A stretch of 64,000 bases of DNA from Psychromonas arctica (GTDB lineage: Bacteria > Pseudomonadota > Gammaproteobacteria > Enterobacterales > Psychromonadaceae): assembly GCF_036697365.1 (NCBI RefSeq), contig NZ_JBAHZA010000002.1, positions 390,549 through 454,548 on the forward strand. The letters run 5' to 3'. A model generated the notes under the pieces. The model did not search any database, was not told the DNA's origin, and saw only the letters and a program-made list of their open reading frames with translations. The translations under genes were made by a program, and so were the position numbers. The stretch's first letter is position 1, and the number at the start of each line of letters is the position of its first letter. This document shows positions 38,300 to 47,488 of the stretch, one piece after another.

Positions 38300-38326
38300 C
38301 AGGGTAGGAAACTACCCTGCTTTTAA
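38300..38326 (+). terminator. rho-independent terminator of gpmI
   Basis: cagggtag-gaaa-ctaccctg followed by cttttaat. Confidence 0.7.
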
Positions 38327-38856
38327 TGATAACCATGACATACTTCCTGAATGCCTACTTCATTTTTCATTCTCTAATTCATTTAATCTTAACAATACTA
38401 TAAGCGATAAATTCTGATTTATACTGTTTTGTAAATAGTTAAATATTACGTTAATAGACCTATAATTATTAGTAAATTGATATTCAAATACAGGCTGTAA
38501 CAATAGTATTCATAATTTTAATCTGTTCAACACAAACTAAAAAAACAAGCTGATTTTAATACCTCATAACCCTAATTCTGATTAGGCAGCCTCCAAAACA
38601 CTTCAAATAATGATTTAATTTTAAATAACCTTTATATTTAAAAAATAAATTAAATTTATTGTTTTGACTTTATTTATACTTTTTAGTAAATTTCTCGAGT
38701 TACGCACAAATGTAATAAAGCCACCAAATAATACTTTTCTCGTTTAATTGTTTACCCAAAAATATTTATACCTATTTAATAAATATTAAACGTCCAAGTA
38801 GAAATGTTTTACCCCCAAAAAATAACAACACGAACTAAACACATAAAGGAACATTT

Positions 38857-39492
38857 GTGGAACACTTCCTCATTAACATAACAAGCTACCCAACTGTTAT
38901 CTACACAACATTATTATTAATAATATTATTATTCTGGCTACTAACAGTGGTTGGTTTATTCGACATGGATATTTTAGATGTTGATATCGACTTAGACACC
39001 TCTGAAGTCGGTGGCGCACTAGGGGTGCTTGTTACATTAGGGTTAACAGGAGTACCTGTCACTTTAGTACTTAGCATACTTATTTTATATAGCTGGACAC
39101 TTTGTTCAATATTGTCACTATTTATTGGTCACTTCGATTGGGATTATGGCGTATTAACTTTCCTTTTAAATACTTTTATTTTGATCGCTACTGGTGCCCT
39201 TTCTATCCCACTTACCGCTAAAACAATTAACCCACTTAGACCACTATTTCGAGCTTTTAATCAAGGCCCTATACAAGAAACCTTAATGGGTAAAGAAGCA
39301 CGAGTACGCACTACAAAAATTGACGAAAATTCAGGTCAGATTGAATGTTCTCGTGATGGAGCTAGTTTAATACTCAACGCAAGATCAGGTAGCGCAAAAC
39401 AATATTTATACGGTGAAACAGTAATCATCATCGACTTTAAAGAAATTGACAACATGTACATTGTCGTTAGTAAACAAGAATTCAATCAATAA
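38857..39492 (+). CDS. YqiJ/NfeD-like inner-membrane protein (DUF1449, C-terminal OB-fold)
   Basis: 211 aa. Three or four TM helices, then a soluble C-terminal beta-rich domain. It sits immediately upstream of a flotillin gene, matching the E. coli yqiJ-yqiK arrangement. Confidence 0.6.
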   Translation: MEHFLINITSYPTVIYTTLLLIILLFWLLTVVGLFDMDILDVDIDLDTSEVGGALGVLVTLGLTGVPVTLVLSILILYSWTLCSILSLFIGHFDWDYGVLTFLLNTFILIATGALSIPLTAKTINPLRPLFRAFNQGPIQETLMGKEARVRTTKIDENSGQIECSRDGASLILNARSGSAKQYLYGETVIIIDFKEIDNMYIVVSKQEFNQ

Positions 39493-39507: not shown

Positions 39508-41565
39508 ATGGATACTAGTATCTTAATAACAATAGGGACTGCGGTCCTTGCTGTCATTGCCATTATTACTTTATTGGCAATGACATTTAGTGCCTTTTAT
39601 AAAAAAATCAGCCAAGGTCATGCGATGATCGTGAATGACATGTCTTCTAAACCAAAGGTACATTTTACAGGTGGCATGGTCTTACCGGTTGTACACAAGA
39701 TGGAAATAATGAAAATTTCATTAATTACACTTGAAATCGACCGTCGTGGTAGCGATGGATTAATTTGTAAAGACAACTTACGTGCTGATATTACTGTTGC
39801 CTTTTACTTACGTGTAAATGAAACACGTGATGATGTATTGAAAGTAGCAAAAGCCATAGGTGTTGATCGAGCATCTGACAAAGATGCTGTTAACGAGTTA
39901 TTTAATGCTAAATTTTCTGAAGCATTAAAAACTGCCGGCAAAGGGATGGACTTCCTTGAGCTTTTTGAAAATCGTATGGGCTTTCGTGAAAAGATTGTCA
40001 CTGTTGTAGGTAATGATCTTAACGGTTATGTATTAGAAGATGTGGCAATTGATTACTTAGAGCAAACACCAAAATCTAGTTTAGATCCAAACAACATTTT
40101 AGACTCTGAAGGTATTCGTAAAATTACCGAAAAAACCGCAGTACAAAATATTGAAACTAACCGTTTAGAAAAAGATGAATCTCTTTCTATTACCAAAAAG
40201 AACGTAGAAACACGTGAAGCAATGTTAGCGTTAGAGCGTCAAGAAGTTGATGCAGAATCTAAACAGAAACGTGAGATAGAAACAGTAAAAGCACGTGAAG
40301 AAGCTGAAACACATAAAATTCAACAGGAAGAACGCAGCAAGTCAGAACAAGCTCAACTAGAAGCCGATGAACAAATTGCCATTCGAGACCAAGTAAAATT
40401 ACGTCAAGTTGAGATCGCAGAACAAAGTAGAGAACGTGCTGTTATTATCGAAAAAGAAAAAGTCATTCGCGCACAAGAAATGGAAATTGTGAATCGTAAA
40501 CGCGAAGTTGAATTATCAGAAATTGATAAAGAAAAAGCACTGGAAGAAGAGCGTAAAATTATTGCTCAAACAATCAGTGAAAGAATTGCAGTAGATCGTA
40601 AAGTAGCTGAAGAAGAAGAAAGAATTAAAGAAGTACAAGAAGTCTCTGAAGCTGATCGTCTAAAACAAATTACTATCATAGAAGCAGAAGCTAAAGCACA
40701 AGAAGAATTACTTCGTGTTGTCAAACAAGCTGAGGCAGATGAACAAAAAGCTGAACATAAATCTCGTGAAATTAACTTAATGGCACAAGCTAACCTTGAA
40801 GTAGCGTCTAAAGAAGCTGAATCAATTAAGAAACTAGCCGAAGGTACTCAAGCAGAACAAGCAGCGAATGGTTTAGCTGACGCAAAAGTATTAATAGCAA
40901 AAGCTGATGCAACTGAAAAAGAAGGATTAGCAAAAGTTCGAGTAGAGGAAGCGCAAGCCAAAGCAACAGAAATGACAGGTCTTGCAGAAGCTAAAGTACT
41001 TGAAGAAAAACTAACAGCTGAAGCTCGTGGTAATGAAGGATTGGGTAAAGCAGAGGCTGTTGCCAAACGTGAAGTTGGTCTGAGTGAAGCAGAAGTCTTA
41101 ACTGAAAAAGGCAGAGCAGAAGCGGTATCTAAACGTGAGATTGGTGTTAGTGAAGCAGACATTATTCGCGAGAAAGGTAAAGCTGAAGCAGATGGTCTAA
41201 TTGAAAAATTCGCTGCAATGAACAACATGAGTAAAGAAAGCAGAGAGTTTGAAGAATTCCGTATGAACCTTGAAATAGAATTCAAACAAACATTAGCTAA
41301 TATCGAAGCTAACAAAGAGATTTCAAGCGATCAAGCAAGCGTATTAGGTGCCGCACTGAAACATGCGAATATCGATATTGTAGGTGGTCAAGGTGAATAC
41401 TTTGACAAGCTGTATAAAGGTTTAGGAGCAGGTAATGCAATTAACGGTTTCTTAGAAAAGAGCCCTGTTATCCAAAGCTTGATGGAGAAATTATTGGCGG
41501 GTACCTCAAATGAAAAAGAGATAAACCAACCAATCGTAGAAACAACGAAGACACCTGAGGTTTAA
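39508..41565 (+). CDS. flotillin family protein (SPFH/Band-7, YqiK/FloT-like) with extended C-terminal EA-repeat coiled coil
   Basis: N-terminal TM helix followed by an SPFH domain (MIVNDMSSKPKVHFTGGMVLPVVHKMEIMKISLITLEIDR...). It has a long Glu/Ala/Lys-rich heptad region and tandem ~20-aa repeats (GLAEAKVLEEKLTAEA / VGLSEAEVLTEKGRAEA / IGVSEADIIREKGKAEA). Confidence 0.85.
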   Translation: MDTSILITIGTAVLAVIAIITLLAMTFSAFYKKISQGHAMIVNDMSSKPKVHFTGGMVLPVVHKMEIMKISLITLEIDRRGSDGLICKDNLRADITVAFYLRVNETRDDVLKVAKAIGVDRASDKDAVNELFNAKFSEALKTAGKGMDFLELFENRMGFREKIVTVVGNDLNGYVLEDVAIDYLEQTPKSSLDPNNILDSEGIRKITEKTAVQNIETNRLEKDESLSITKKNVETREAMLALERQEVDAESKQKREIETVKAREEAETHKIQQEERSKSEQAQLEADEQIAIRDQVKLRQVEIAEQSRERAVIIEKEKVIRAQEMEIVNRKREVELSEIDKEKALEEERKIIAQTISERIAVDRKVAEEEERIKEVQEVSEADRLKQITIIEAEAKAQEELLRVVKQAEADEQKAEHKSREINLMAQANLEVASKEAESIKKLAEGTQAEQAANGLADAKVLIAKADATEKEGLAKVRVEEAQAKATEMTGLAEAKVLEEKLTAEARGNEGLGKAEAVAKREVGLSEAEVLTEKGRAEAVSKREIGVSEADIIREKGKAEADGLIEKFAAMNNMSKESREFEEFRMNLEIEFKQTLANIEANKEISSDQASVLGAALKHANIDIVGGQGEYFDKLYKGLGAGNAINGFLEKSPVIQSLMEKLLAGTSNEKEINQPIVETTKTPEV

Positions 41566-41723
41566 TTAACCTCTTCCTACTCAGTACTTAATCGTTTAAT
41601 AAGGAATGTTCATATTCAACCAACCTGATTAAACGATTACCTGAGTAGCGATTCATTTAATATATTTACATATAGTCAGAGCCCTGCTCTGACTTGTCAA
41701 TTAAAGCTGTTTAGGAAGTAATT

Positions 41724-44700
41724 GTGACTGATAAATCAATGATAGTAGAACAAGCCGTCGCACAAGGTGGCGCTTATGAAATCATTCGTAAACGTCTTGA
41801 AGATCAAGGCAACCAACTAGATAGCTTAACTCAACAACTCAACTTAGATAGACAAAAAGAATTCGGCACTACTGAAATGAAAGTGTTGGGTCGTACTCGT
41901 ATTCGAACAGAACATAATTGCCAAGCAACAGACTTGGTTATCGTTGGTGATTATGTTCTATTTGGTTATAATGTTTTTCTAGGTTTAAAAAAACAAACAG
42001 TACTAAGTGATGTACTCTCACTATTTCAATTAGAGCAAGTCGAACAGCAATATGAACTGAAGCAAGTTGACTTAGATAGCTCATTTCTCTCAGACCCTCG
42101 ATTTATTACTGAATTCCAAGAAGTATATGCATACTACAAAGATGCTACCCTTTCTCAATTAGTATTGAGAAACAATAAACTGTTAGCGGCCTTCAAGATT
42201 GGTGAAAAACTAACAGATATTCGAGTATTTCGCTGGCAAGTAAATGGTAATGATATCGAGTACATCGATAATCGTGGTGAACGAGATTTAAAATTACCTG
42301 ATACACACGACTTTCAATGGAATCGCTGTGGTCGTGAAGATATTATCGATGGGCGTAACCCACATGTTAATGTCCTTGATACCCTTTTTATTGACAGTTT
42401 ACGTGGTGATATCACCATAAAAGTTGAAGATAATACTAATGTGGGACAAGGTATTTACAGCGAACCAGTACAAGAAAGTAATCAGTCAATTAACGATGCT
42501 GAATTTTATTATGCAGATCTTGATCCCATTATTTTATTGAAAATAAGACCTTATCAAGAAGAAAATTATCGATACCTCCTTTTCAATAAAAAAAACCAAG
42601 ATATAAAACGAGTTGATGCTATTGGTGACTCTTGCCAGCAACTCCCGGAGAATCACGGTATTATTTTCCCTGGTGGTTATTACCTTACGACAGGTGAACT
42701 TAAAACTTTTGAGGATGATTTAGAAGGACTAGTTTTTAATAGCAGCATGAAATCACCTAATGGTGAAGATGTGTTATTCGTATTCTATCAACCACATACA
42801 AATATCGTGGCGTTATACCCATATAATTTAATCAATAAGTCATTACAAAATCCAATATTCGGGCATGGTTATGGTTTCTATGAAGATGGCCGTATGATCA
42901 TCTTTTATGCAGAACAAGAAGCAAGCCGTATTCATCCTGTGCAAATTTGGCAAACCGCTTATTACTCAGATGTTTTTGCTAGCCAACAAATTCAGTCCCC
43001 TACCTTCTTCGGGAAAATTGGTAACACCGATCTGGTTCGTGGTATTTCAGAGTTATATACCATCTCAAAGAGTATTCACCAAGAAGCCAGCTCTGCTAAT
43101 CATTACAATGATTTAATCAAACATTGTGCCACTATTTTTGATGCTTATTACTGGTTAGACAGCAAAGAACTTGAGCCAATTCGCAACCTGCTTTATACCG
43201 TAAAAGAAACTTCAGAAGCCGTGATTGATGAATATGAAAAAGTAGAAAGTATTCGTAAACAATCAGACAAAGCATTAAGTGAAGCAAACAAAAAACAAGT
43301 AGAAATATTACGTCAGATTCAGCCTGGTAGTTGGCGTTCACCACAGGAATTTGTGGATGGCTTGAATACCATCTCAGCACAACAAGGACATTTATTAACG
43401 ATTAGAGAATATCGTTATATTGATGTAGAAGCGATTGATGAATTGAACCAAAAGCTGACTAAAACCAGTGAAGAACTGAATCAAAGAACGGTTGAATTTT
43501 TATCGTCTGATGATGCGTTGAAAAGTTATTACAGCGACCTTGAACAGATTATATCAAGCAGTGAAAAGGCCCAATCAACTGCAGAACTATCACCTCAAAT
43601 AGACGCATTGAACGATATTTCACAAGGGTTGGATCTCATTAGTCAGATCATGGCTTCATTAAAAGTATCCGATGCCACCATGCAAACACAAATTGTTGAT
43701 GCAGTCTCTACACTTTACAGCAAAATTAATCAGCAAAAAGCTCAGCTCAGCCACCAGCAAAAGAGTTTTGGTAGCCACGAAGCACAAGCTCAGTTTTCAG
43801 CTAGATTAAAACTATTAAATCAAACTATTCATAACGCATTAAGTCTTTCAACATCACCCGATAAATGTGATGAGCAATCAGCAAGGTTAATGGTACAAGT
43901 TGAAGAGTTAGAAAGTGAATTCAGCGAATATGATCAATTCATTGGCGATATTGTCACAAAGCGTGATGAAATATTTGAATCTTTTGAAACACATCGTCAA
44001 TCGCTTATTGAAACAAGACAACGCAAAGCACAATCACTAGAAGATGCTGCAAAACGTATTTTATCTTCTGTGACTAAACGTATTAATCGTTTTACTGAAG
44101 CCAGTGAAATGAATACTTTTTTTGCTGCTGATAGTTTAATCAATAAAATTCGCGATATTATTGAGCAACTGAACCAGCTTGATAGCTCAGTTAAAGCCGA
44201 AGATGTTGATGCAAAACTCAAAGCTATTAAAGCACAAGCACTCCGTTCTTTACGTGATAAAAGTGACTTATTTGAGGAAGGCGGCAATGTCATCAAGTTA
44301 GGCCCGCGCCACAAATTCTCAGTCAATAAACAAGCCTTAGATTTAAGCCTTTTAGCAAAAGATGAACAAATGTATGTTCGGCTTACCGGTACTGATTATG
44401 AACAAGTGATACAAAACGCTAAATTAGATGACTTAAAACCTTATTGGAACATACATTATCCATCTGAAACAAATTTACTATATCGTAGTGAGTTCTTAGC
44501 TTATTCGGTTTTACAAGCAGCGATTAATCAAACTGATGGCTTAACCTGGCAATCACTTAGCGCTGTAGTGGGAAGCCAAGATTTACTCTCTAAATTAGTC
44601 AGTGAATTTGCGAGTACGCGTTATAAAGAAGGCTATGAAAAAGGCATACATGATTTTGATGCCACATTAATATTAACCAAATTATTCCCAGCTTATGAAA

Positions 44701-46628
44701 CCGCAGGGGTATTTGTTCACAGCCCATTTGCGAGAGGGTTAGCGTGTATTTTTTGGGCGAATACTCAAACAGAAAAGCCTCAAACACTTTGGCATCAAGC
44801 GTGTAAAAACGCCGCTCAAATGCAACGTCTTTTTGGTCAGTTAACCGCTAAAACGACAATCATTAATGAAATTCAACAATCATTAAGCGCTTTTCTCGTA
44901 AAACATCAGTTTGCTGTGCCAACACAAATCATTTCACGTGCAAGTGAATACTTAAGTGAAGAGCTTGCAAAAGATCAAGTTAACTTTGACACCAGTAAGT
45001 ATGCACGTCGTTTGTGTGATGATTTTACAACATATTTAAATACACATGATGTATGGCAAGACTACTTAAAATTATTGAACGAATTACAAGGCGAAACGGG
45101 TAAACGTTGGCAATTAACAGAAAGTTGGTTAACAGCATTTGTTGAGTCACAAGGTAAAACAGACTTATATGAATTTATCGGTGAAGCCATTGGTATCCTT
45201 AATGCAGAAAAACGTATCGACAGAAATGACCGTGAAGTTGATATTCAGTTTACCATTACAGGATTGCTAGGTAATCATCCGCTTATTAAAGAACAAGCAT
45301 TAACCATTCAACTGCCTGATTTTCTGGATCGTAACAATCATTTCCATCAACAAGTGCTACCAAAATACTTAGATTACTTAAGTACGCGCCAACAGGTTAT
45401 GGATGAACAAAAGTCACTACTTCGTTTAGAAGAGTTTAAAGCAAAACCACTTTCATCATTTGTACGTAACCGTCTAATTTCAGATTCTTATTTACCGTTA
45501 ATTGGTGATAACCTCGCCAAACAAATGGGCACAGTAGGGAGCAGTAAGCGTACGGACTTGATGGGATTATTATTAATGATTTCACCGCCTGGTTACGGTA
45601 AAACCACCTTGATGGAGTATGTCGCAGATCGTCTTGGCTTGATATTCATGAAAATTAACTGCCCTGTTATTGGCCATTCAGTGACATCCGTTGATCCAAA
45701 TGGCACAACCGACAGCGCAGCAAAACAAGAACTAGAAAAGCTCAATCTAGCTTTAGAAATGGGCAGTAATGTGATGTTATATCTAGATGATATTCAACAT
45801 ACCAACTCAGAATTCTTACAAAAGTTCATTTCGCTTTGTGATGGCACAAGAAAAATTGAAGGCGTTTGGCAAGGTAAAACCAAAACCTATGACATGCGCG
45901 GTAAAAAGTTCTGTGTTGTGATGGCCGGCAACCCCTACACTGAAACTGGTGAGACATTCCAAATTCCAGATATGTTAGCCAACCGAGCAGATATTTATAA
46001 TCTAGGTGATGTATTAAGCGGTAAAGAAGAGGTGTTTAATCTAAGTTATATTGAAAACGCCCTATCTTCCAATGCAATATTAGCACCTTTAGCCAGTCGT
46101 TCGATGGATGATGTGTATAAATTTGTTGATATGGCAGAGGGTAAAAATGTGGCGAGTACTGACTTTAGTCACCAATATAGTGCTGCTGAAAGTAAAGAGA
46201 TAGTCACCGTATTGCAAAAGCTACAACAAATACAGAGCGTGGTTGCTATCGTCAATAAACAATACATTCAGTCAAGCGCACAAGATCCTAAATACCGTAC
46301 AGAGCCTCCATTCAAGTTACAGGGTTCATATCGTAATATGAATAAAATGGCTGAGAAGATCTCTGCCATTATGACCGATAAAGAATTGGCCGACTTGGTT
46401 GATGACCATTACCAAGGTGAATCGCAGTTATTAACAACAGGCACTGAAGCGAATCTGTTAAAACTAGCTGAATTACGTGGATTATTAACCTCAGAAGATA
46501 ATAAACGTTGGGCCTCTATAAAAGCTGACTTCAAACGTAATTTAGCAATGGGTGGCGATGAAACAGATAGCGGACAACAAATTGTCGGTCAATTGAATGA
46601 CATTGTTAATGCGATTAACAATAAATAA
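41724..46628 (+). CDS. 1634-aa multidomain protein with C-terminal MoxR/AAA_5-type AAA+ ATPase module; function unknown
   Basis: Walker A LLMISPPGYGKTTL, Walker B VMLYLDDIQH, sensor-1 CVVMAGNP, Arg-finger region LANRADIYNL. The N-terminal ~480 aa is beta-rich. The centre (~aa 480-1000) is predicted long alpha-helical/coiled coil. The gene is co-oriented with the flotillin operon, 158 bp downstream of it. Confidence 0.6.
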   Translation: MTDKSMIVEQAVAQGGAYEIIRKRLEDQGNQLDSLTQQLNLDRQKEFGTTEMKVLGRTRIRTEHNCQATDLVIVGDYVLFGYNVFLGLKKQTVLSDVLSLFQLEQVEQQYELKQVDLDSSFLSDPRFITEFQEVYAYYKDATLSQLVLRNNKLLAAFKIGEKLTDIRVFRWQVNGNDIEYIDNRGERDLKLPDTHDFQWNRCGREDIIDGRNPHVNVLDTLFIDSLRGDITIKVEDNTNVGQGIYSEPVQESNQSINDAEFYYADLDPIILLKIRPYQEENYRYLLFNKKNQDIKRVDAIGDSCQQLPENHGIIFPGGYYLTTGELKTFEDDLEGLVFNSSMKSPNGEDVLFVFYQPHTNIVALYPYNLINKSLQNPIFGHGYGFYEDGRMIIFYAEQEASRIHPVQIWQTAYYSDVFASQQIQSPTFFGKIGNTDLVRGISELYTISKSIHQEASSANHYNDLIKHCATIFDAYYWLDSKELEPIRNLLYTVKETSEAVIDEYEKVESIRKQSDKALSEANKKQVEILRQIQPGSWRSPQEFVDGLNTISAQQGHLLTIREYRYIDVEAIDELNQKLTKTSEELNQRTVEFLSSDDALKSYYSDLEQIISSSEKAQSTAELSPQIDALNDISQGLDLISQIMASLKVSDATMQTQIVDAVSTLYSKINQQKAQLSHQQKSFGSHEAQAQFSARLKLLNQTIHNALSLSTSPDKCDEQSARLMVQVEELESEFSEYDQFIGDIVTKRDEIFESFETHRQSLIETRQRKAQSLEDAAKRILSSVTKRINRFTEASEMNTFFAADSLINKIRDIIEQLNQLDSSVKAEDVDAKLKAIKAQALRSLRDKSDLFEEGGNVIKLGPRHKFSVNKQALDLSLLAKDEQMYVRLTGTDYEQVIQNAKLDDLKPYWNIHYPSETNLLYRSEFLAYSVLQAAINQTDGLTWQSLSAVVGSQDLLSKLVSEFASTRYKEGYEKGIHDFDATLILTKLFPAYETAGVFVHSPFARGLACIFWANTQTEKPQTLWHQACKNAAQMQRLFGQLTAKTTIINEIQQSLSAFLVKHQFAVPTQIISRASEYLSEELAKDQVNFDTSKYARRLCDDFTTYLNTHDVWQDYLKLLNELQGETGKRWQLTESWLTAFVESQGKTDLYEFIGEAIGILNAEKRIDRNDREVDIQFTITGLLGNHPLIKEQALTIQLPDFLDRNNHFHQQVLPKYLDYLSTRQQVMDEQKSLLRLEEFKAKPLSSFVRNRLISDSYLPLIGDNLAKQMGTVGSSKRTDLMGLLLMISPPGYGKTTLMEYVADRLGLIFMKINCPVIGHSVTSVDPNGTTDSAAKQELEKLNLALEMGSNVMLYLDDIQHTNSEFLQKFISLCDGTRKIEGVWQGKTKTYDMRGKKFCVVMAGNPYTETGETFQIPDMLANRADIYNLGDVLSGKEEVFNLSYIENALSSNAILAPLASRSMDDVYKFVDMAEGKNVASTDFSHQYSAAESKEIVTVLQKLQQIQSVVAIVNKQYIQSSAQDPKYRTEPPFKLQGSYRNMNKMAEKISAIMTDKELADLVDDHYQGESQLLTTGTEANLLKLAELRGLLTSEDNKRWASIKADFKRNLAMGGDETDSGQQIVGQLNDIVNAINNK

Positions 46629-46784: not shown

Positions 46785-47060
46785 TTGATGGCTCTTATCC
46801 ATACAACCAGAGATCATAATTTACCGATTTCAGTCTTAAAACAAAAAATTGATAACATAGCCGCGGAGTTAGCCACTGAATATCAACTAACAAGTGAATG
46901 GGAAGATAACTGTCTTTTTTTTCGTCGTAAAGGGGCAAGTGGAAGTATTGAAATTGACGCACAAAGCTTAGAGTTGAATCTAACCCTTGGGGCGCTATTT
47001 AAAGTCGCGAAAAACGATATAGAATCAAAAATAAACAAGATGTTAGATACGCATTTGTAG
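46785..47060 (+). CDS. polyhydroxyalkanoic acid system family small protein (TIGR02610-like)
   Basis: 91 aa. The pattern ELATEYQLTSEWEDNCLFFRRKGASGSIEID...LELNLTLGALFKVAK...IESKI matches the conserved ~90-aa PHA-system family. Confidence 0.5.
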   Translation: MMALIHTTRDHNLPISVLKQKIDNIAAELATEYQLTSEWEDNCLFFRRKGASGSIEIDAQSLELNLTLGALFKVAKNDIESKINKMLDTHL

Positions 47061-47116: not shown

Positions 47117-47488
47117 TCACTTACTTTTATCTAAAACAGTATAAGAGTGCTCAGGTAACTCAAACATCGCCCCTGTTACAGGATCGACCACGAGCATACC
47201 AAGAAAGCTAATAATGAGAATATTACCAAAATACCATTCATCTAAATTACTGTCTATTATCACTGTTTTTTCAATATACCCTTTTTTGTTTAAAGTGAGC
47301 GTGTACGTCTCTCCTTTATAAAATCCAGAGGACGCATTTAGTATAAGTGAAATAGGCGTTGTACCCGTATGTATTAATGCCCCACTTCTATTTTTAAGTG
47401 TGATATGAGCGTGACTAGGTTCACTGGTAATTTCAACTAAATATCGACGTTCACTAACAATACTTGAACATCCTGATAAAAACGACAC
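47117..47488 (-). CDS. lipoprotein, hypothetical
   Basis: Lipobox-like MSFLSGCSS at the N-terminus. 123 aa. Confidence 0.45.
   Translation of the reverse strand: MSFLSGCSSIVSERRYLVEITSEPSHAHITLKNRSGALIHTGTTPISLILNASSGFYKGETYTLTLNKKGYIEKTVIIDSNLDEWYFGNILIISFLGMLVVDPVTGAMFELPEHSYTVLDKSK

Follow-up and report, generated by a model that had tools for sequence, protein, structure and literature searches.

What the very large ATPase encoded next to a flotillin gene in Psychromonas arctica does, and whether the name 'DNA repair ATPase' under which it is filed describes it, are the questions raised by this locus. The gene (41724..46628, on the + strand, as are all features described here) is the third of a three-gene unit in the 64,000-nucleotide stretch of P. 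arctica DNA that was analysed (the window). Its open reading frame begins with a GTG start preceded by AGGAAG 5 nt upstream, and the 1634-aa product of roughly 180 kDa is identical to P. arctica WP_333382108.1, the record that carries the 'DNA repair ATPase' name. The frame is not a chance one, since its homologues fill more than 6000 clusters at 90% identity, and the GC content of the operon equals that of the window (37.1% and 36.6%, respectively), which gives no sign of recent transfer. No transmembrane (TM) segment is predicted, and by its sequence the ATPase is a soluble, cytoplasmic protein. NCBIfam and PADLOC scans returned nothing meaningful for it. An earlier note on this DNA gave no validated function, and a search of the literature likewise found none. 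We consider it an even call that the protein, as a hexamer, remodels membrane assemblies of flotillin/NfeD (and PspA), as the orthologue of Pseudomonas aeruginosa BacE in a three-gene membrane module; most likely, it acts on membrane-stress scaffolds and not in DNA repair.

The only catalytic signature of the protein is a single, contiguous AAA+ module (aa 1240–1460, nt 45441..46103), as the earlier note had stated, and the motifs quoted there (PPGYGKTT, DDIQH, AGNP and ANRAD), together with the N-terminal β-rich stretches, were all found where it had placed them. The module contains a highly conserved pre-AAA segment (aa 1242–1272), Walker A (SPPGYGKTT, aa 1287–1295, nt 45582–45608), a conserved β2–α2 loop (NCPVIGHSVTSVDP, aa 1312–1325), Walker B (VMLYLDDIQH, aa 1350–1359, nt 45771–45800), a β-hairpin predicted at the pre-sensor-1 position between the Walker B helix and strand β4 (aa 1377–1390), sensor-1 (AGNP with N1403, aa 1401–1404, nt 45924–45935) and an arginine motif (ANRAD with R1421, aa 1419–1423, nt 45978–45992). 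The features of the AAA+ superfamily are thus present: Walker A and B, the polar sensor-1 residue, the arginine after β4/β5, the αβα core and the helical lid. Among homologues, PPGYGKTT is found in 440 of 440 sequences, and hhhDD[IV]Q and LANRAD are each found in 439. Conservation reaches at least 90% in 63% of the AAA core columns across the range from Proteobacteria to Actinomycetes, and the loops at the pore-facing positions (aa 1312–1325 and 1376–1396) contain many invariant residues in a 24-sequence alignment. This degree of motif conservation suggests an active, constrained enzyme. The unusual Walker B motif with DD instead of DE could point to slow hydrolysis and to a role as a switch or scaffold, not as a processive remodeller, and its presence in all but one of the 440 members counts against the remodeller reading.

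The affiliation of the module with the MoxR/AAA_5 type, proposed in the earlier note, holds by fold but not by sequence profile. The closest solved folds are CbbQ (14.2), midasin (13.3), NorQ (13.1) and dynein (12.9), compared with 11.7 for ClpA, which places the module nearest to MoxR/midasin/dynein. At the sequence level, MoxR is not singled out: the Pfam AAA_5 score of 25.3 bits exceeds its cut-off of 22, with that of generic AAA about equal (26.4), and hhalign of the AAA sub-alignment against Escherichia coli RavA gave a probability of 11% (with a single-sequence template of limited sensitivity). The corresponding values for RuvB (96%), ClpX (90%) and McrB (69%), also obtained with single-sequence templates, reflect short P-loop-centred stretches. 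Searches against the PDB with the single sequence and with a 108-sequence profile yielded P-loop-level matches only, and by these searches the ATPase has no solved relative at the sequence level. The earlier view that a lone AAA+ module is unusual did not hold, as one module per chain is normal for the ring-forming CbbQ, NorQ and RavA; midasin and dynein, in contrast, contain six tandem modules. The ATPase differs from all of these proteins by ∼1240 extra residues (the N-terminal propeller, rod and alpha domains), and from the MoxR family also by the DD in Walker B and in that no VWA/MIDAS partner was found among the recurrent neighbours in 80 loci. It may differ in helix 2 as well, where no β-hairpin is predicted (the β2–α2 segment, aa 1313–1330, is modelled as a conserved loop containing short helices).

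Pfam matches, together with two AlphaFold models of good confidence, provided the architecture of the remainder of the chain. A long N-terminal helix (aa 17–47, nt 41772..41864), in which 108 sequences share R24, L25, N40, R43 and F47 without exception, precedes a β-propeller (aa 53–410, nt 41880..42953) that forms the core of Pfam DUF3686 (PF12458, E 5.5e-184, aa 32–476, full profile length). The AlphaFold model of this region comprises ∼28 strands with pLDDT mostly 85–95, which probably form seven blades, and Foldseek matched it to the propellers of prolyl oligopeptidase, CyRPA and trilobed protease with a probability of 1.0 at 8–12% identity. The N-terminal β-rich region, which includes GDYVLFGYNVFLGL (aa 75–88) and FVFYQPHTNIVALYPYNLINKS (aa 352–373), had been suggested to be a binding or propeller domain, in agreement with these results. 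Among 686 representatives, DUF3686 occurs essentially only in this architecture, in proteins of ∼1600–1900 aa, and almost always at the N-terminus where the full-length protein was seen. The propeller is followed by a predicted all-α rod (aa 428–847, nt 43005..44264), in which 13 helices form antiparallel bundles and which includes Pfam DUF7902 (PF25472, E 2.4e-21, aa 597–680, nt 43512–43763). This ∼420-aa segment, which had been described as a ∼500-aa coiled-coil centre, is instead a segmented rod of spectrin-like helical bundles and not a classical coiled coil. Next come a small β domain (aa 856–896, nt 44289..44411), in which, as in the propeller, conservation is at least 90% in 34% of the columns, and a stretch (44484..45422) composed of an all-α domain (aa 921–1165), a small β element and a long helix (aa 1167–1233) that leads into the ATPase module. 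The C-terminal region (aa 1461–1634, nt 46104..46625) is helical and contains the conserved motif YRTEPPFKLQGSYRNMNKMAEK (aa 1524–1545). Most homologues carry an extra C-terminal tail, usually of ∼70–170 aa, which the P. arctica protein lacks.

When the whole chain was compared with known structures in Foldseek, the best matches were propeller-plus-helical coat and scaffold proteins, i.e. IFT-A (E 1e-7), clathrin heavy chain (3e-5) and nucleoporins. Their TM-scores are only 0.07–0.14, so the likeness lies in domain order and not in detail. These matches, the similarity of the long spectrin-like rod to cytoskeletal linkers and the nearly universal DD in Walker B speak for an ATP-gated scaffold or tether, in which the nucleotide state would act as a switch with slow hydrolysis and the arms of the protein would either connect flotillin microdomains with another cellular structure or form a coat-like lattice on them. 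The low TM-scores weaken this proposal, however, as do the sensor-1 Asn and the arginine motif, which are kept as in hydrolysing AAA+ rings, and the nature of the nearest folds, which are working motors and remodellers. On balance we regard a scaffold or tether as unlikely, and favor a protein that remodels membrane assemblies.

The two genes upstream in the window indicate which assemblies these could be. The first gene of the unit (38857..39492) encodes a 211-aa protein of the YqiJ/YuaF family (short NfeD-like), with three predicted TM segments and a C-terminal β domain. Plain BLASTP against YqiJ and Pfam gave essentially nothing for this protein, but a profile of 30 orthologues aligned with E. 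coli YqiJ in hhalign with a probability of 93.4% (E 2.5e-7, 138 columns). The second gene (39508..41565) encodes a 685-aa flotillin-family (SPFH) protein with a single predicted TM helix at the N-terminus, an SPFH domain and an extended helical region rich in E, K and A. It shares 27% identity with E. coli YqiK over 473 aa (E 4e-43), which confirms the flotillin connection made in the earlier note. The flotillin is a further annotation gap at this locus, as it has no Pfam match and is recorded only as a 'hypothetical protein'. Its C-terminal part was inspected for a conserved motif that could be an ATPase-binding site, and nothing stands out there; the SPFH domain is the conserved part.

The linkage between the flotillin and the ATPase is strict. 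Of a sample of 80 related loci, 77 have the flotillin gene directly upstream of that for the ATPase, and these are all the loci with enough flanking sequence, the other three being cut by contig ends before the flotillin position. The median gap between the two genes is 99 nt. The linkage spans Gamma-, Beta- and Zetaproteobacteria, Myxococcota, a Clostridia MAG and Nocardiopsis, and the divergence of the flotillin tracks that of the ATPase (Spearman rho 0.74). The ATPase family itself shows high conservation in Proteobacteria, Myxococcota and Actinomycetes, and a Bacteroidota genome also encodes a member. By tblastn, 69 of the 80 loci have a same-strand YqiJ-like gene upstream (72 by ORF clustering), and a DUF2170/CesT-like and PspA_IM30 pair is upstream in 39. 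The recurrent neighbours are the YqiJ-like protein, flotillin, DUF2170, PspA, rhomboid, TelA and a Zn-ribbon protein; TelA, rhomboid and PLD genes, which are membrane-stress genes, are found near the ATPase in some lineages.

These neighbourhoods bear on two other explanations. According to the first, the ATPase would act as a chaperone of assembly, or as a maturase, of the MoxR type, and its client would be a membrane complex recruited to flotillin microdomains, with the flotillin and NfeD-like proteins forming the platform rather than the substrate. It draws on the closest solved folds, CbbQ and NorQ, which are MoxR-family activases/maturases of specific enzyme clients, and on the chaperone-like roles in building membrane-linked complexes proposed by Ravi et al. 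2024 (PMC11237479). Yet the recurrent neighbour clusters of the 80 loci contain no VWA/MIDAS adaptor, the conserved neighbour families that were checked include no candidate client enzyme but only genes for membrane scaffolds and stress, and the sequence-level similarity to RavA is negligible, so that we find this explanation distinctly unlikely. According to the second, the database name is right and the protein is a DNA repair ATPase. The name is only inherited, from Pfam PF12458 and the NCBI records, and the recJ gene, located three genes downstream of bacE in P. aeruginosa, is the one neighbour in its favor; the recJ neighbourhood is absent from the recurrent neighbour families of the other loci, where the conserved neighbours are membrane proteins. 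The Pfam content includes no DNA-binding domain, nuclease or SMC/Rad50-type split ABC head, the ATPase being one contiguous AAA+ module, and RuvB matches only at the P-loop, with the NCBIfam RuvB models at 15–17 bits against cut-offs of 282–299. No literature supporting the name for the DUF3686/PF12458 family was found. The earlier note had called this label loose, and neither Pfam, the homologues nor the neighbourhood support it; a role in DNA repair is highly improbable, and the name is a misleading one that has spread over thousands of records.

The studied relative of the P. arctica protein is BacE of P. aeruginosa (PA3728/PA14_16190), of which it is the orthologue. BacE, a 1746-aa homologue that was matched through a published primer, has the same DUF3686, DUF7902 and AAA build, shares ∼51% identity in the first 1000 aa and 54% in aa 860–1634, and carries the C-terminal tail. 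The order of genes, YqiJ-like, then flotillin, then ATPase, is also the same as in the window. The P. aeruginosa operon bacABCDEF ('biofilm-associated cluster') has in addition BacA (DUF2170/CesT-like) and BacB (PspA) upstream and the PLD-family BacF downstream; the window lacks all three, and no PspA, DUF2170, PLD, TelA or rhomboid gene was found in it. BacE is the only family member with experimental data, which concern its transcription and abundance. The operon is transcribed as one transcript with a proposed sigma-54 promoter, and BacE was increased 8.9-fold in a bacA mutant, alongside BacB–D and BacF (PMC10948618). By analogy with bacA, a sigma-54 site was sought upstream of 38857, and none was present in 38320–38856, a point against the preferred reading as a remodeller.

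The same build and operon were described by Ravi et al. 2024 (PMC11237479), who proposed roles in sub-membrane dynamics. Their class combines CesT/Tir-PspA, band-7/flotillin, YqiJ/YuaF and a novel AAA+ ATPase with a β-propeller and a coiled coil, and the window corresponds to their 'abbreviated operon' of a flotillin, a YqiJ/YuaF-type TM protein and an AAA+ ATPase, with no PspA. Their work was comparative genomics alone; the structure models, motif statistics and fold matches are added here. The build is thus not the unusual one it had been taken for. The ATPase is an ordinary member of a large, widespread and previously noted family, with DUF3686, DUF7902, the AAA motifs and the operon position all matching, and for this window there is nothing beyond what knowledge of the family already holds.

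An alternative of a different kind is a membrane-associated anti-phage defence or abortive infection system, in which the propeller would sense infection and the ATPase would trigger a membrane or PLD effector. A big NTPase with a repeat sensor and a DD Walker B motif is reminiscent of STAND-like defence proteins. In P. aeruginosa, a PLD-family gene follows bacE, and PA3728–PA3732 were induced in every phage-infected sample (PMC12041424). However, the fold is that of an AAA+ protein with an arginine motif and not of STAND, the PLD gene is absent from the window, and the best match in PADLOC-DB 2.0 was mad8 (E 0.0098) over 70 residues of the P-loop region, with nothing for the neighbours. The co-divergence with the flotillin across phyla, the GC content equal to that of the surrounding genome and, in P. 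aeruginosa, the 3222 ATPase sequences in one 90% cluster, which look like those of a conserved chromosomal gene, also stand against a defence role, which we consider improbable.

For the preferred role as a remodeller, the following mechanism can be envisaged. The single MoxR/midasin-like AAA+ module would assemble into a ring, probably a hexamer, from which every subunit would project a spectrin-like rod tipped by a β-propeller. The propellers, or conserved loops of the ring, could engage the cytoplasmic flotillin/NfeD assembly and perhaps also, where it is encoded, the PspA (ESCRT-III-like) polymer. ATP binding and hydrolysis would then drive the assembly, opening, disassembly or recycling of these scaffolds at the inner face of the membrane, and the module may be part of a phage-shock-type envelope stress response. 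As the window contains no PspA gene, any link to PspA would be indirect in P. arctica, and this lack, like that of DUF2170, PLD, TelA and rhomboid genes, speaks against the proposal, as do the mild phenotypes (∼20% less biofilm) reported for a P. aeruginosa mutant of the partner flotillin PaFlo3 (PMC13086221).

A functional analogy is offered by Vps4/ESCRT-III, as the AAA+ protein is tied genetically, in about half of the loci, to PspA, a polymer of the ESCRT-III superfamily at the cytoplasmic face of the membrane; the Vps4 type itself is a classical-clade AAA with an N-terminal MIT domain, which the ATPase is not. Another functional analogy is FtsH with HflK/HflC, in which an AAA+ machine of the bacterial inner membrane is coupled to an SPFH cage; FtsH, though, belongs to the classical AAA clade and is a protease anchored in the membrane, whereas the ATPase is soluble, has no protease domain and has a flotillin-type SPFH partner. 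The ATPase is the obvious candidate for a dedicated energy source behind the assembly, movement and takedown of bacterial flotillin and PspA, because it is always flotillin-adjacent, is highly conserved and belongs in P. aeruginosa to an operon responsive to biofilm growth and phage. A more specific version, which we offer tentatively, as possible rather than probable, is that the family is the missing bacterial disassemblase: a hexameric MoxR-like ring whose six spectrin-like, propeller-tipped arms would clasp the cytoplasmic flotillin/NfeD dome, as well as any PspA/ESCRT-III polymers, and open or recycle them with ATP. If true, it would be a functional counterpart of Vps4 made from unrelated parts, and bacterial flotillin dynamics would be energy-driven.

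Some additional features of the locus and its relatives were also examined. A possible link between the missing C-terminal tail and the absence of PspA was not borne out by a clear correlation (37 of the tailed loci have PspA and 27 do not, and only six loci are tail-less). The knock-out of Shewanella SO1377 (YqiK-type), considered as a source of a link to mutation or DNA damage, was set aside, since it concerns a two-gene yqiJ–yqiK unit that lacks an ATPase and has a terminator of its own. An Rfam scan of the window gave no matches, and no T-run terminator was called in the spacer between the flotillin and ATPase genes (41566..41723). Along with the ribosome-binding site, this spacer contains an inverted repeat (I2) and two strong hairpins (∼41577–41648 and 41674–41694), and its RNA fold of −45.3 kcal/mol is well below that of shuffled sequences (z = −5.2).

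The ORF of the ATPase is located at 41724..46628 (+), exactly as given in the earlier note, and comprises 1634 codons with a GTG start and AGGAAG five bases 5′ of it; all six peptide strings that the note had quoted lie where it had placed them. The sequence is identical to WP_333382108.1, 'DNA repair ATPase [Psychromonas arctica]', and both checked upstream proteins are likewise identical to Psychromonas arctica genome entries. Pfam identified DUF3686 ('ATPase involved in DNA repair'; residues 32–476, E 5.5e-184), DUF7902 (residues 597–680, E 2.4e-21), and AAA and AAA_5 (residues 1283–1406, weak yet above threshold). Each of three protein searches returned thousands of homologues, mostly 1620–1830 aa long and named 'DNA repair ATPase', 'AAA family ATPase' or 'MoxR-like ATPase'. 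The protein is a member of a recognised, widely distributed family, the operon context of which has been published before. A function in DNA repair, for which the inherited name is the sole basis, is very improbable.

Two AlphaFold models were obtained from a 108-sequence alignment, for residues 1–1000 and 860–1634 (mean pLDDT of 83.4 and 87.2, respectively). In these models, a long helix (residues 17–47) is followed by ∼28 β strands (53–410), thirteen helices, the longest of ∼50–58 residues (428–847), a small β domain (856–896), an all-α domain with a small β element and a long helix (921–1233), the AAA+ core with its lid (∼1240–1460), and a helical C-terminal region (1461–1634). The overall description in the earlier note was largely right. 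In Foldseek, the N-terminal domain matched the β-propellers of prolyl oligopeptidase, CyRPA and trilobed protease with a probability of 1.0 but at 8–12% identity, so it is a propeller without a close solved relative. When residues 1–480 were used to scan all 1.84 billion cluster representatives, only 686 matched, and wherever a full-length protein was seen, the domain nearly always formed the N-terminus of a chain of ∼1600–1900 aa; the propeller is therefore essentially specific to the propeller-rod-AAA+ architecture. No 19-residue window of the ATPase is TM-like in hydropathy (maximum 1.46), which indicates a soluble protein. From Proteobacteria to Actinomycetes, the share of columns with a conservation of at least 90% is 63% in the AAA core, 34% in the propeller and 19% in the rod. 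Overall, the ATPase is soluble and combines a single, strongly constrained AAA+ module with a propeller and a long rod of helices.

All 440 family members compared carry Walker A (PPGYGKTT), and 439 carry LANRAD. Walker B (45771–45800, residues 1350–1359) follows the pattern hhhDD[IV]Q in 439/440, with Asp-Asp in place of the usual Asp-Glu and a single member with DE; Asp-Asp could signify slow, switch-like hydrolysis. It would also suit a nucleotide-gated scaffold, tether or coat, as would Foldseek matches to the propeller-plus-helical coat proteins IFT-A, clathrin and nucleoporins, which are low (TM ≤0.14); we regard this reading as rather unlikely. In the AlphaFold model, a β-hairpin at residues 1377–1390, between the Walker B helix and β4, occupies the pre-sensor-1 position, and the β2-α2 segment contains a conserved loop with no hairpin. 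When profiles were compared, the AAA region matched E. coli RavA with a probability of 11%, and RuvB, ClpX and Lon outscored RavA, only over short, P-loop-centred stretches; a PDB profile search gave the same picture of short P-loop-centred matches. The case for the MoxR clade from sequence is weak, so we use the label 'MoxR/midasin-like by fold' and not MoxR family member: the MoxR/AAA_5-like assignment in the earlier note stands at the level of fold. As a lead, AGNPYTETGETFQIPDMLANRAD appears to share layout and spacing with the MoxR consensus, ATQNPxExEGTYxLPEAQLDRF.

Upstream of the ATPase ORF, the same strand carries two genes. The product of 39508..41565 (+), a 685-aa protein with one N-terminal TM helix and the database name 'hypothetical protein', is 27% identical to the E. 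coli flotillin YqiK over 473 residues (E 4e-43), so the hint at flotillin in the earlier note was apt. Neither Pfam Band_7 nor Flot matched it even at E values up to 10, although both matched YqiK. This flotillin subfamily looks like an annotation blind spot, possibly due to its E/K/A-rich composition. The product of 38857..39492 (+), with 211 aa and three hydrophobic segments, showed no similarity to E. coli YqiJ in BLASTP; a profile of 30 orthologues matched YqiJ with a probability of 93.4% (E 2.5e-7). A clear terminator-like hairpin (38300–38319) follows the upstream iPGM gene and no terminator was called between the YqiJ-like, flotillin and ATPase genes, so the three look like one transcription unit. 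Its non-coding leader (38320–38856, 530 nt) is very AT-rich and contains no sigma-54 −24/−12 site, unlike the proposed P. aeruginosa bacA promoter. The 158-nt flotillin-ATPase spacer (41566–41723) is predicted to fold with −45.3 kcal/mol (z = −5.2) into two strong hairpins, one at about 41577–41648 that contains an inverted repeat of 16 nt with 94% complementarity, and one at 41674–41694 with a 9-bp GC-rich stem. No T-run follows them, and they may process, stabilise or attenuate the transcript, setting the flotillin:ATPase ratio.

Relatives were sought in one genome per species, at least 564 were confirmed from the first 600 candidate stretches, and 80 loci were kept, from Gamma-, Beta- and Zeta-proteobacteria, Myxococcota, a Clostridia MAG and Nocardiopsis. 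A flotillin gene lies directly 5′ of the ATPase on the same strand in 77/80 loci, the other three being cut by contig ends, with a median gap of 99 nt. The larger gaps that were checked are filled by unrelated insertions: two tandem PDDEXK_2 transposase-like genes in locus L001 (6024–7924, locus coordinates here and below), and an alpha/beta hydrolase and a NYN-domain gene in locus L032 (4503–7149). The YqiJ-like gene was found in 69 loci by tblastn and in 72 by ORF clustering, and divergence of flotillin and ATPase from the window proteins correlates (Spearman 0.74). Farther upstream, 39/80 loci contain a DUF2170 (YjfI/CesT-like) and PspA_IM30 pair (ORF clustering and Pfam). Genetically, the ATPase is linked to flotillin, to a YqiJ/NfeD-like membrane protein and, in many loci, to PspA. 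Lineage-specific genes 3′ of the ATPase are all membrane- or stress-related: TelA (toxic anion resistance) in 14 loci, nearly all from Xanthomonadales-type genera (about 13.7–15.2 kb in L018, L021, L022 and others); a rhomboid protease in 11 loci, downstream in all but one (about 13.2–13.9 kb in L002, L008, L009 and L012); and the PLDc_2 protein BacF in P. aeruginosa (L082, 13260–13952, just 3′ of the ATPase). A Zn-ribbon protein occurs occasionally. No VWA partner or client gene is among the recurrent neighbours checked, which makes a MoxR-style maturase acting on a client unlikely. A defence system is more doubtful still: there was no PADLOC match, and the gene behaves as a conserved chromosomal gene.

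Operons of this class that include an AAA+ ATPase, some also with a PLD hydrolase, have been described, abbreviated forms without PspA being more widespread, and 'Betapropeller+Coiled-coil+AAA-ATPase' was tabulated for a Dokdonia locus (Ravi et al., PMC11237479). RT-PCR in P. aeruginosa enlarged the bac 'biofilm-associated cluster' to bacABCDEF, for which a sigma-54 promoter was proposed; loss of bacA by mutation raised BacB-D, PA14_16190 (BacE) and PA14_16200 (BacF) 6- to 13-fold (PMC10948618). The P. aeruginosa homologue in our set (P0131, 1746 aa) lies in the order DUF2170, PspA, 213-aa protein, 688-aa protein, ATPase and PLDc_2, with recJ and lasB downstream. The published primer 'PA14_16190/20_F' maps inside the 3′-terminal part of the ATPase gene, and its partner maps to where the PLD gene starts; together with the gene order, this confirms BacE as a family member. 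The 'PA14_16190/20' pair spans 176 bp (L082, 13105–13280) versus a tabled product of 501 bp (PMC10948618, supplement), and 'PA14_16180/90_R' has no match within one mismatch in the P. aeruginosa contig; strain variation or errors in the table could account for these discrepancies, which have no bearing on the BacE conclusion. Deletion of PaFlo3 (BacD) had only mild effects (PMC13086221), and PA3728 has been listed as a recurrent target of mutation in cystic-fibrosis isolates (PMC8190622). In P. aeruginosa, the ATPase is co-expressed with bac genes (PMC10948618) and induced by phage infection: PA3728–PA3732 belong to a set of 17 genes whose induction was common to all phage-infected samples (PMC12041424). 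No published tests of the ATPase itself were found in the searched literature.

A joint explanation, to which we give an even chance, is that the ATPase forms a ring that remodels flotillin/NfeD or PspA assemblies. The AAA+ module would assemble into a ring like its nearest structural relatives, the propeller-tipped arms or conserved ring loops would engage the flotillin/NfeD assembly or PspA polymers, and ATP turnover would then remodel or recycle them. SPFH cage domes (HflK/C, flotillin-1/2) reach a height of roughly 15–25 nm, similar to the length that about four spectrin-like bundles would cover; this argues for plausibility and no more. Taken as a whole, the family is a good, testable candidate for an energy-dependent step in bacterial flotillin/PspA dynamics, which makes the finding one of moderate interest.

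The Psychromonas arctica copy is distinct in two ways: it has no C-terminal tail, and its operon is the PspA-less three-gene form. The C-terminus (46500–46628) is about 70–170 aa shorter than in most homologues, and more compared with a few; the absent part consists of a variable linker and a conserved terminal motif (consensus ...PL...MDGKLD.DL...). The tail is likewise absent from close Psychromonas relatives (1634 aa), Xenorhabdus, Gilliamella and many Actinomycetes, and whether a protein has the tail showed no clear relation to whether its operon includes PspA. The window contains no PspA, DUF2170, PLD, TelA or rhomboid homologue, and GC content of the operon (37.1%) is close to that of the window (36.6%). 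Two further genes, neither conserved beside the ATPase in other loci, follow: one just 3′ of it (46785–47060, +) encodes a 91-aa PHA_gran_rgn protein of the polyhydroxyalkanoate-system family (E 8.8e-23), and the other (47117–47488, −) a 123-aa protein with a weak PEGA-domain match, whose N-terminus, MSFLSGCSS, looks by eye like a lipoprotein signal.
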